Source: Podarcis erhardii (Eukaryota). Taken from it: a DNA stretch of 64,000 nucleotides. The number at the start of each line of letters is the position of its first letter. Positions within the stretch are counted from its first letter, which is position 1. The notes under the pieces are model-generated. The model was not told the origin of the DNA, made no database searches, and saw only the letters and a program-made list of their open reading frames with translations. The stretch lies in NCBI GenBank assembly GCA_964252035.1, contig OZ176201.1, one strand, 5' to 3'. The translations under genes were made by a program, and so were the position numbers. Shown here piece after piece: positions 25,701 to 28,700 of this stretch.

Positions 25701-28700
25701 CCTCAAACTGCACCTCTTCACTCTGCTGCCCAGGAGAACTGTCTTCAGTGTAGCACTAGGGTTGGGTTTCTTCAGTGAAGCTCTGCCCTCTTGAAGGTTC
25801 TCCAGGTACAACAGTATGGTTTGGTGTCGTCACAGCAGGCAAGGAGAAAGGATTGGGAATATATGGTTCTCCAGATGTTACTGGACTCCAGCTTTTATCA
25901 TCCGTGGCCACCACAGCCAGCAAATTTCTCTTAAAGACATTGCTTTCACAAGGGAAATGGTGTGTGCACCCTGCATATACATTGTCCTGAGTAACTAATG
26001 CACACATACCTCTTACTGGACATATAGGAACTCCTAAGGAATCAGAATCTGTGCAACTTTCTAAATGGCAGCAATGTTTAGGTAAGAAATTTGTCCAATG
26101 CACTACACAACAGATTTCCATGGTACATTTGCATGGTAGCAGTAGACGTGCTTTAAGGACATCCCCAGTGCTTATAAATAAGGACTTTTTCCATACTTAA
26201 ATGACAGCTCTTCCCTTTACTACCAGTATTTGATATTTCTCCCTCTCTACATTTAGAAGGCTCAGGCACTGTGTCTGCTCCATTCAATGCAAAATTTTGA
26301 AGCAAAATATTGGGGTCTCTGAGTAGGGATAACAGCCTCCCCCTTTAGTTCTTCTATGTGAGCCCAGCATCAAAGACTTACCCACATTAGTCTTGGCAGT
26401 GACAAAACGGGCTGGCTCTTTGACATTGTCAGCCAGTAGGAAGGCTCCCTCCTCCAGGATGTCAAGGAGCATTGTGGCTGTGTGCACTTGCTCTGTGGCA
26501 TTCATGTCCTTCCATGACTCTAGAGCTTCAGGTCGCAGGAGGTTGTCCACCGTCTCCACCACAGCCTAGAATGACACAGAGTTCTGAGAGAGGATGGAAG
26601 CACCCCCCCCTTCCTCTAGCTTCCCATTGTATAATAAACCAGCTACAGATGCCTCCTCTCACAGAGAGAAAACATTCGTGTGTTTTTGTGTGGTGGCATT
26701 GCTGTCACCACCTGACTATTCTTTCCTGGCTGCTTTGAGTATAATTTTACAAGTAGTATTGGGATTTAAAAAATAAAATAAAAAATTGTGCATGAACCAC
26801 GTATTTGTTACTCCTTTGTTGTATAGGAATTAGACATTCTCCCTCCAAGCAGCCCTTCCATTGTAAGGGGGTATAGTATTTTCCAAATATTCCATAGCTG
26901 GGAAAAAGCAATTCTTCCCCTGAACAGCACAGGCATTGCAATCAACTGCCTTTGGTAATGCAGTTATGTGTATTGCACAGGCACCTACTAGATATTGCCT
27001 TTGTTGAGCTCAATGATGAGCAGAACAATCCCGTATCTAAATGTCTATGCCATTTATAACTGTCAGGGGTTCAGGGAGAGAGGCGCAGAGGAGGGAGGAG
27101 ACCGAGAGTGAGGGAGAAGGATTCCAGGCTGACGAGGAAGAGGACGACAATGACCCGAGATGGTCCATGAGTCCGTCCAGTGAATCGGAGGATTCCCAAA
27201 AGGGAGCCCCCCTGGTCAAGCCAAGGGGAGCCCAAGGGGGAAGCAGTCAGGAGCAGGGGAACGTAGGGGGAACCGCCAGTGGGAGTTGGAGATCGGGACC
27301 GGCTTCTCCACCGGAACGGAGTGAAGAGGGTGGAGTTACCAGTGTGTCGGGAGGAACAGAACAAGGAGCAGAGGGGGGAAGGAGATCGGGGCAAGACGTC
27401 CTGCCGGAAGGGGCGGAAAGCAGTACCGGGAGCAGTGTGGCTGTTGAAAGGAAGGTCAGGAGCAACGTACGCGCGCCAAGTTCAAATGTGGAGGCGCGCG
27501 GAAGTGGGGAGAGCTCTGGGGAGGAGCCTGGTGCCAAAGCACGAAGGAGGGGGGAGCAGGCAGGAGAAGACTCAGCCTCTGGGGAGTCCCGGAAGGAGGG
27601 AACACAGGGGGGCAGGAAGACCCTGCGGAAAAGGAAAGAGAGGAAAAGGTGGAGCAGCACAAGCCTCTTAAATTGGTGCAGGGGAGGGACGGACTCAGAG
27701 GGGACTTCTAACATCTAAGGGTAACAGATGCGGAGCCACGGAGTTTGGATGTAATGACGACAATGATCTTCAATAAAACCTTTTGTATATAGCTTGGACT
27801 GGACTTTGGTCTCTTGTGAGCTGGGACCCAGGGTGGCTCTGACAATAACTGTTTTAGGTTGCTTTTCTCCCTTCACATTTTAGAGTCTGAACACTTCTCC
27901 GTTGTATTATTTCTTCACTAGAGCACGTATTTATCACCCATGTGCCCACAGAAATGCCCTGTCATTTCGTGCTTTTCCTTTTTAAAATGTAGCTGAATTT
28001 ATTATGTACTTGATGACTATTTAGGGAAGTTATGGAAAACAGCTGAAATGATGAAGCTATCCAATTATATCAGAGTAAAAGAAAATCAACAACAAATGGA
28101 TAGTACTGTTGAAAACTGCTATTATTCGTACATTATTGGAACCAGAAATATAATGATAATGTACCATGATTTCCTTTAGTATTATGAGAGTTGTCTTTAT
28201 GTGGTGTTCTTAGAGTAAAATAAAAAATAAATATTGTTTTGTTATATTCTTTGAATATGTGTTTTCTCTTCCTCCACCACCTCCAGTTATGGAATGGGCA
28301 TCTGTCATGATTTTTAAAGGAAGGTGGAAGTGGGTTTTCCCAGGGAAAATGTTAGGACCAAAAAATAAAAAAATGCTCAGACACAGAACTTTAAAGTGCA
28401 GACCTGTGCCTAATAATGCAGTCTGGATGAATCCATACTCTAAAATGGCCCTGTGTTGTGACAGCTCCCATGCTGATGCATTAAAGAGGCCCAGATTGGG
28501 CCCATTTCTGTTGAGGTCCTGCCCCATCTGTGTTTAGGGAGTTTCCACTGGTTAATACCAGCCCACCCATCATCTGGACAGGGGCTTTGGGACATGCCTT
28601 GCCCATGGGGACAGCTCTGCTCCACTCAAGCATGTTTGACTGAGGACCTGGATTGCTCTGTGAGATTCTCTGTGAGAAAAACTTTGCTTCTTGGGTAGCA

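Follow-up and report, generated by a model that had tools for sequence, protein, structure and literature searches.

The closest precedent for the element described here comes from plants. In group A of the CRM elements, Pol extends into the 3' LTR, and the part encoded there is described as a putative targeting motif that replaces the chromodomain (PMC3059260). Targeting by integrase is also described for Ty5, in which a short motif binds a host protein and steers the element to telomeric chromatin (PMC4700185), and for Ty1, likewise steered by an integrase targeting motif (PMC7459421). Among elements that insert in telomere repeats, those treated in PMC10088271 are SART/TRAS, MoTeR1 and, in the anole, Tx1-1_ACar; all are non-LTR elements that use an endonuclease. 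The Tf1/sushi group is defined by a self-priming arrangement in the account of 10.1101/2022.12.06.519325, whose defining features we used as membership criteria. Among the best-ranked papers of literature searches that covered neither Repbase nor subscription journals and supplements, we found no description of the present family, nor of any vertebrate LTR element in telomere repeats. Our main reading, to which we give a probability of about three in four, is that an open frame in the U3 of a lizard LTR represents the last 218 codons of Pol of a young Ty3/Gypsy element, maintained by selection, and that copies of this element lie in telomere repeats as often as they do through a preference of integration.

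The window is a stretch of 64,000 nucleotides of Podarcis erhardii (assembly GCA_964252035.1, contig OZ176201.1). A solo LTR of 784 bp occupies positions 27061..27844 on its plus strand. By its near-identical copies, and by pairs of them that flank gag-pol, it belongs to subfamily A of a young Ty3/Gypsy family of the Tf1/sushi type, named here family I. The element starts with TGTCA and ends with TGACA. It is bordered by a perfect 5-bp target-site duplication (TSD), ATAAC, at 27056..27060 and 27845..27849 (plus strand), which the joint of the empty site corroborates, and it carries a polyadenylation signal, AATAAA, in R at 27772..27777 (plus strand). A sequence-only reading of the window had recognised the TG..CA termini, the duplication and the signal, and all three stand. 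It contains 33 CpG dinucleotides against 59 expected. At least 40 copies in the same genome are 99.9-100% identical to it (40 scored of 2404 candidates). The sequence-only reading had also proposed a search for an empty allele: it is present in contigs from four of four public sequencing runs, which bear four organism labels, and its joint skips 789 bases. The insertion is thus recent and not fixed.

The host gene is of the latrophilin type (ADGRL), and by similarity we take it to be ADGRL1. Its exons lie on the minus strand. The LTR sits antisense to it, in the intron between a GAIN exon at 26380..26565 (minus strand; Pfam GAIN match, 3' border approximate), downstream of the insertion in the sense of the gene, and a small exon at 28745..28800 (minus strand; borders approximate), upstream of it. 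Further exons on the same strand are found at 30050-30240 (approximate) and at 32923-34023, the latter olfactomedin-like. A young copy antisense to the host gene in its GAIN region had been anticipated, and this is what we see, the copy lying in an intron of that region. For the host gene, the insertion is most likely an ordinary polymorphic intronic copy; the solo copy in itself is ordinary.

Within the LTR, one plus-strand frame is open from 27062 to the TAA at 27716-27718, over 218 codons. Counted from an ATG in the host flank, at 27041, it reaches 225 codons; an internal ATG lies at 27167. Across the LTR, stops number 9 in one of the remaining plus frames and 5 in the other. The sequence-only reading had given the same frame (27041-27718, 225 aa) with the same internal ATG, and had placed every stop triplet in the other two frames. 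Its description of the product as rich in S, G, E and R also matches: G accounts for 17% of residues, S for 17%, E for 14% and R for 11%, with an acidic patch on the N-terminal side and a basic cluster near the end. It had warned that low T content in itself lowers stop frequency, a fair caveat. In sets of 5000 shuffles each, 0.04-1.3% of the shuffled sequences contain a plus-strand frame of at least 218 codons, and 6-12% contain one when all six frames are counted. The single copy alone is therefore only modest evidence for coding, and it is comparative tests that settle the question.

Many copies of the LTR pair at a spacing of about 5745 bp and flank a gag-pol element of 6.5 kb. In the full-length copy L031, a Gag frame is followed in the -1 frame by a Pol frame of 1556 codons (1934-6604), which ends in the frame and at the stop seen in the window; its residues 1339-1556 are encoded by U3. 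By this continuity, and by the selection described below, the segment 27062..27718 (plus strand) represents the last 218 codons and the stop of Pol, headless in the solo copy. The question of whether the frame continues upstream into the internal domain, raised by the sequence-only reading, is thereby answered: in full-length copies it runs on from Pol.

The Pfam domains of Pol follow the order protease, RT, RNase H, integrase and Tf2-1 SH3. Past the integrase, Pol runs through a degenerate chromodomain (residues 1144-1199), an acidic linker and the polypurine tract before entering the 218 codons of the LTR: about 140 residues lead from the chromodomain to the tract, and 208-232 then run through U3. 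In Gag, zf-CCHC scores 19.3 bits, just below the cut-off of 20.8, and its motif is visible. The overlap of Gag and Pol in the -1 frame contains GGGAAAC, which we take to be a slippery site from its role in PEG10. The frames and Pfam matches of L031 consist of gag and pol alone, with no env frame between the LTRs.

The youngest set comprises 107 LTRs, among 150 scored, grouped into 64 loci. Two or more LTRs are present at 42 of these, and tandem arrays of three LTRs exist in the genome. At 28 of the 42 multi-LTR loci, which belong to the youngest subfamily, a frame of at least 1500 codons ends at the window's stop. Pol reads through into the LTR likewise in subfamilies B, C, D and E, and in the UniRef proteins P0001, P0002 and P0004 of Podarcis muralis; the named relatives come from Podarcis lizards. 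Several copies (L032, L058, L136 and P0003) carry frameshifts in the G runs of the polypurine tract or immediately upstream of them. Altogether, read-through of Pol past the polypurine tract and into LTR sequence is seen in five subfamilies and also in a distantly related sister family, named here family II.

The pattern of codon changes shows that this tail is under purifying selection. Subfamilies A and B have LTRs of 88% identity without gaps, with 16, 17 and 35 mismatches at codon positions 1, 2 and 3; over the 218 ungapped codons of real copies, dN/dS is 0.27-0.28 (Fisher p about 1e-6). Across subfamilies A-E, it lies between 0.21 and 0.41 in ten of ten pairs, with 0.06-0.10 in the enzyme core. 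This count excludes pairs with a sixth copy, L136, as the Pol of that copy carries a frameshift immediately ahead of the LTR. The other plus frames yield 1.07 and 1.22, and the minus frame that mirrors third positions yields 0.36, as expected. LTR lengths of 754, 766 and 784 differ by multiples of three.

For an unbiased sample, the first 30 of 860 polypurine-tract junctions were picked without regard to frame. Rather than the stops or frameshifts in most copies that the sequence-only reading had named as counter-evidence, 27 of the 30 copies reach the homologous stop after 208-232 codons; the exceptions are one nonsense change, one frameshift and one disrupted copy, and the other frames contain 4-21 stops. 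The proposal that the U3 frame is protein-coding and kept in the family is thus upheld by both the copy survey and the dN/dS values, a check it had itself suggested. The frame could instead have arisen by chance from the base composition of a purine-rich LTR, an idea that can draw on the 6-12% of shuffles that produce one in any of six frames. This idea is refuted by the dN/dS range among subfamilies, by the in-frame length changes and by the 27 intact copies, and we leave it practically no weight.

Where transcription starts can be predicted from the priming arrangement. The PBS begins two bases past the 5' LTR, and 10-11 of its bases are complementary to a stretch located 22 bases before the Pol stop. 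PBS and R covary in four sequence types of family I: AAGTCCCCTC with GAGGGGACTT in subfamily A, AAGCTCCATC with GATGGAGCTT in subfamily C, AAGTCCCGTC with GACGGGACTT in the copy L137, and a pair one base longer in subfamily D. Family II has its own matching pair in the same arrangement. The PBS and the 5' end of R are paired in the minimum-energy fold, whose z as a whole is only -1.44. This covariation points to self-priming of the Tf1/sushi type, with a predicted start at 27697. The segment 27697..27707 (plus strand; AGAGGGGACTT) would be both the 5' end of the RNA and the self-primer, and it also codes for S-E-G-T of the tail. About 29 bases before the predicted start, at 27668..27673 (plus strand), a TATA-like TTAAAT overlaps the L-N codons of the tail and is a putative promoter element; TTAAA is kept in subfamilies A, B, C, E and F, and D has CTATTAAG. 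With +1 at 27697, U3 would be coding from end to end and the promoter of a solo LTR would lie behind the frame. As the predicted start is downstream of nearly the whole frame, transcription from the promoter within the solo copy would leave the frame unexpressed.

This bears on the claim that the frame is a separate gene for a nuclear accessory protein, the part of the sequence-only reading that does not hold. HIV nef and MMTV sag are separate genes that overlap U3 and are expressed from their own mRNAs in env-bearing retroviruses. Family I resembles them in having coding sequence that overlaps U3; it differs in that this is the end of Pol, that there is no env frame and that there is no conserved start of its own. 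A separately expressed gene, or expression of solo copies from an upstream host promoter, could make use of the ATG at 27167, present in subfamilies A, B, C and D, or of the in-frame ATG at 27041. However, the former is absent in subfamily E, P0001 and P0002, and the latter belongs to the host flank. In addition, the frame is continuous with Pol, selection before the ATG-containing half is as strong as after it, the predicted start lies behind the frame, and the insertion has an empty allele. We regard this explanation, in either form, as very improbable.

The features above suggest that family I works like a Tf1/sushi chromovirus, a placement made by features and not by an RT-integrase phylogeny. 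With Tf1 and sushi-ichi it shares the domain order, the position of the chromodomain after GPY/F, the self-priming PBS, the -1 overlap and the CCHC motif. It differs from them in its degenerate chromodomain and in a Pol that runs on through U3, the TATA-like site and the primer. Its U3 is purine-rich, whereas sushi LTRs are described as T-rich in PMC3601003. The sequence-only reading had held that coding in U3 is not standard for Ty3/Gypsy elements; it is nevertheless known in CRM group A, as described in PMC3059260. Both have a Pol end encoded by the LTR and both occupy a specialised chromosome domain, a likeness that rests on described features and not on the sequence of the CR motif. The plant elements have a tRNA-Met PBS and are centromeric; family I lives in a lizard, has a self-priming PBS, keeps a chromodomain remnant and has as its target the TTAGGG repeats found at either end of the chromosomes. 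Family I is thus neither a CRM element nor telomere-exclusive, and its U3 frame is no retroviral accessory gene.

The tail is most conserved at its end (27614..27679, plus strand). A basic cluster, with a net charge of +9 in 30 residues, is followed there by W-S-x-x-x-L-L-x-W-C, a region that forms the only predicted helix of the tail, and a short one. As the L-L-x-W codons lie over the TATA-like site and the last codons over the primer, conservation in these places may be partly at the DNA level. Structure prediction for the last 479 residues of Pol, from five copies, is of low confidence throughout (mean pLDDT 37). Pfam matched no family to the window's frame or the tail, and a comparison with solved structures matched none to the tail, only weak HP1-type chromodomain hits appearing (E 0.02). 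In a profile search of 1.84 billion representatives, 930 matches were obtained. Among the best 150 of them, four cover the LTR-encoded part (P0007, P0009, P0010 and P0014, the two named ones being from Podarcis) and the remaining ones cover the SH3/chromodomain part.

Family I has no Pfam Chromo match, and its degenerate chromodomain, with dN/dS of 0.03-0.26, is better conserved than the tail. In family II, from the same genome, the chromodomain is intact, and Chromo scores above the Pfam cut-off at the corresponding position. Its Pol is 56% identical to that of family I and also closes in a basic cluster and L-L-x-W. Its LTR measures 412-437 bp and encodes a tail of 102-109 codons (dN/dS 0.27-0.33), about half as long as the tail of family I.

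As counted within this one family, copies of family I are two to three orders of magnitude more frequent in telomere repeats than the share of these repeats in the assembly would give. At the 64 youngest loci, whose flanks were read on both sides except for five with one side missing, ten insertions lie in canonical TTAGGG repeats and one more in a variant array; the other 53, the window copy included, lie outside telomere repeats. Four-unit TTAGGG repeats give 9311 overlapping matches and amount to about 56 kb, which sets the share of (TTAGGG)n in the assembly at about 0.004-0.02%, the upper figure allowing five times 56 kb. Across the genome, a single register, with the TSD CTAAC/GTTAG, accounts for 16 of 17 and for 9 of 10 junctions between repeat and LTR, in both orientations. 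A matrix built from 36 non-telomeric TSDs predicts the same register, yet only a 1.26-fold rate in TTAGGG repeats. Within 30 kb of a chromosome end lie 9 of 61 chromosomal loci, where 0.05 would be expected. A 508-bp satellite, considered as a target, was set aside: it flanks only about 6 of the 64 loci.

Contigs C1-C20, treated as chromosomes, have 40 ends, and 39 of these were surveyed over their last 9-10 kb. Telomere repeats are present at 26 of the 39. The family occurs at 24 of these 26 and is the first non-telomeric DNA at 18. Over the 39 ends it covers 40% of the terminal 9-10 kb, versus at most about 1% of the genome by a rough estimate. On several chromosomes its copies are concentrated at both ends, and they are also concentrated in TTAGGG arrays. 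Loose-end telomere repeats at LTR termini are seen in three of the four sequencing runs, with different organism labels. One other element, a LINE, was met inside a telomere array.

An integration preference, by whatever means, is the likely source of this excess. The copies could also have gathered passively: insertion would be near-random, copies would be tolerated and retained at the ends, and a few events would be multiplied by recombination, either from end to end or of cDNA with a resident LTR. Segmental duplicates do occur near ends (pairs on C7 and C13, four copies on C19), as do tandem three-LTR arrays in the genome; real telomeres may exceed their assembled length, and family II also shows an excess near ends: of its 38 chromosomal loci outside C19, 10 lie no more than 1.3 Mb from an end, where about 1.3 would be expected. 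The same altered final base is found in four telomeric copies, and only 13 substitutions separate two copies at the right end of C1, so that some telomeric copies may derive from one event. Taking those four as a single event is weakened by their belonging to two sublineages, and was kept as a conservative count.

Against such gathering, the eight telomeric full-length copies are 13-36 substitutions apart (the median of all pairs is 25) and have 6-13 private substitutions each, while the terminal branches of known duplicate pairs are short. No substitution is exclusive to these eight; they fall in three sublineages and in both orientations, and telomere junctions are seen in four subfamilies. 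The register of the junctions is that of the integrase's own TSD preference. With duplicates merged, 7 of 53 events correspond to an enrichment of 250-660-fold for targets of 0.8-0.3 Mb, and even the harshest count, 4 of 50 events with a 15-Mb target, leaves a p of 0.004. Passive gathering is thus an unlikely account of the excess.

An integration preference would bring family I close to Ty5, likewise an LTR element concentrated at telomeric chromatin. As described in PMC4700185, Ty5 is Copia-type, uses silent chromatin near telomeres and targets 90% of its new copies there; in family I about one young locus in six is concerned, inside the TTAGGG array itself. Insertion within telomerase-made repeats is what it has in common with SART/TRAS, MoTeR1 and Tx1-1_ACar, according to the account in PMC10088271. 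It differs from these non-LTR elements as an LTR element that uses an integrase, inserts in both orientations and, with 11 of 64 loci, is not exclusive to telomeres.

In the mechanism that we propose, the full-length RNA starting at +1 would give Gag and, by a -1 frameshift, Gag-Pol, and its first 10-11 bases would prime reverse transcription. The protease would free an integrase whose disordered extension continues for about 350 residues beyond the chromodomain remnant; this tail would be made from full-length copies only. The basic cluster of the extension would likely aid nuclear entry, and its conserved short motifs would likely tether the integration complex to telomeric chromatin, other sites still being used. 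Older copies would end up buried in the subtelomere, and recombination between LTRs would leave solo copies such as the one in the window.

The tethering step is suggested by analogy with the 3'-LTR motif of CRM group A and the integrase motifs of Ty5 and Ty1. Tentatively, at somewhat less than even odds, the tail of this family without a canonical chromodomain may carry both tethering and nuclear-import signals; we hold tail-mediated tethering to telomeric chromatin, taken by itself, with the same reserve. The loss of the chromodomain and a tail doubled relative to family II fit such tethering. The end motif of family II, which shows no telomere junction in the 39 ends examined and whose copies are older, and the conserved chromodomain remnant of family I do not fit it.

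These last two points are shared by another explanation, which we consider possible at close to even odds: the tail is selected, for nuclear import, nucleic-acid chaperoning or particle assembly, and other parts of Pol do the targeting. The tail might then be cut off by the element's protease, and the telomere preference would come from the altered chromodomain, the acidic linker or the integrase core. The strong basic cluster suits such a role, and the chromodomain-like part, more conserved than the tail, could itself target. F/Y-x-L-x-P, a shelterin-binding pattern, is absent from all six Pol proteins scanned. On the other hand, family I has lost its chromodomain and doubled its tail relative to family II, the same exchange as described for CRM group A (PMC3059260), and motifs outside the basic cluster are kept across tails only 43-60% identical. 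Returning to tethering, its most complete version is an active lacertid LTR element that prefers TTAGGG arrays, binds a telomeric protein through its U3-encoded integrase tail and ranks among the main builders of the subtelomeres in these lizards; as a whole, this version is rather doubtful.

An element that used an integrase and preferred the TTAGGG arrays of a vertebrate would help to show how integrases recognise telomeric chromatin, and would also bear on how subtelomeres are built. If its U3-encoded tail does bind a telomeric protein, that tail would be for animals, and for telomeres, what the CR motif is in plants. One stretch of 60 bases acts as protein code and also as predicted promoter and predicted primer. 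Solo LTRs, in their thousands, spread through the genome a frame of 200 codons without its head, which gene finders annotate as hypothetical proteins. By its features the family resembles the self-priming chromoviruses, with an unusual address, the telomere repeats, and a Pol tail in U3.

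Several copies of family I, the young Ty3/Gypsy family of Tf1/sushi type to which the window's solo LTR belongs, lie at chromosome ends. Telomere repeats directly cap truncated copies at the left ends of contigs C14 (locus L062) and C1 (L060) and at the right end of C4 (L146), as though the chromosome ends had broken inside the element and then been healed. Elsewhere, at G000:C7:76554554-76566827, and also in L062, neighbouring copies form tandem arrays in which adjacent elements have an LTR in common; this arrangement suggests recombination between cDNA or copies. At locus L017 (C1:5261), an older family I copy carries a young solo LTR of the same family nested in its linker, the acidic part of Pol past the chromodomain remnant, at about positions 5790-5800 of the full-length copy L031.

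Other repeats also lie at or near chromosome ends. The terminal TTAGGG array at the right end of G000:C3 contains a 5-kb non-LTR element (L177:3020-8130) that has endonuclease and reverse transcriptase domains and terminates in poly(A); it may be related to the telomere-specific Tx1 element known from the anole. Near chromosome ends we also found a satellite of ~508 bp with an internal similarity of 250 bp (L103:1285-7696; G000:C8:93.32-93.37 Mb; L064:5740-6600), which in places alternates with short telomere runs. About 6 of the 64 young family I insertions lie within this satellite.

The distant sister family II is concentrated on one 30-Mb contig, G000:C19, which holds 51 of the 91 family II matches listed. 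The same contig also carries four copies of a single young family I insertion, in a segmental repeat. It looks like a non-recombining sex chromosome.

In the window itself, the intron beside the LTR differs from the public sequencing run X1, which across positions 26701-26726 carries 14 inserted bases and lacks 10 others; the X1 allele is therefore not that of the window. Two arms of 235 nt (1-235 and 2133-2367), 93% complementary and 1.9 kb apart, form an inverted repeat, which could be either two opposite repeat copies or a DNA transposon.

At the 5' LTR junctions (L031:985-986 and others), the PBS is constant and the second base past the LTR is variable. Among the junctions seen, it is A, T or C and never G, and it marks sublineages. 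This base would not pair with the primer.

Two more distant Gypsy proteins, P0012 and P0017, likewise have an acidic stretch at their ends, along with a purine-tract-like peptide and a cluster of basic residues. These protein sequences hint that read-through into the LTR may be wider than families I and II.
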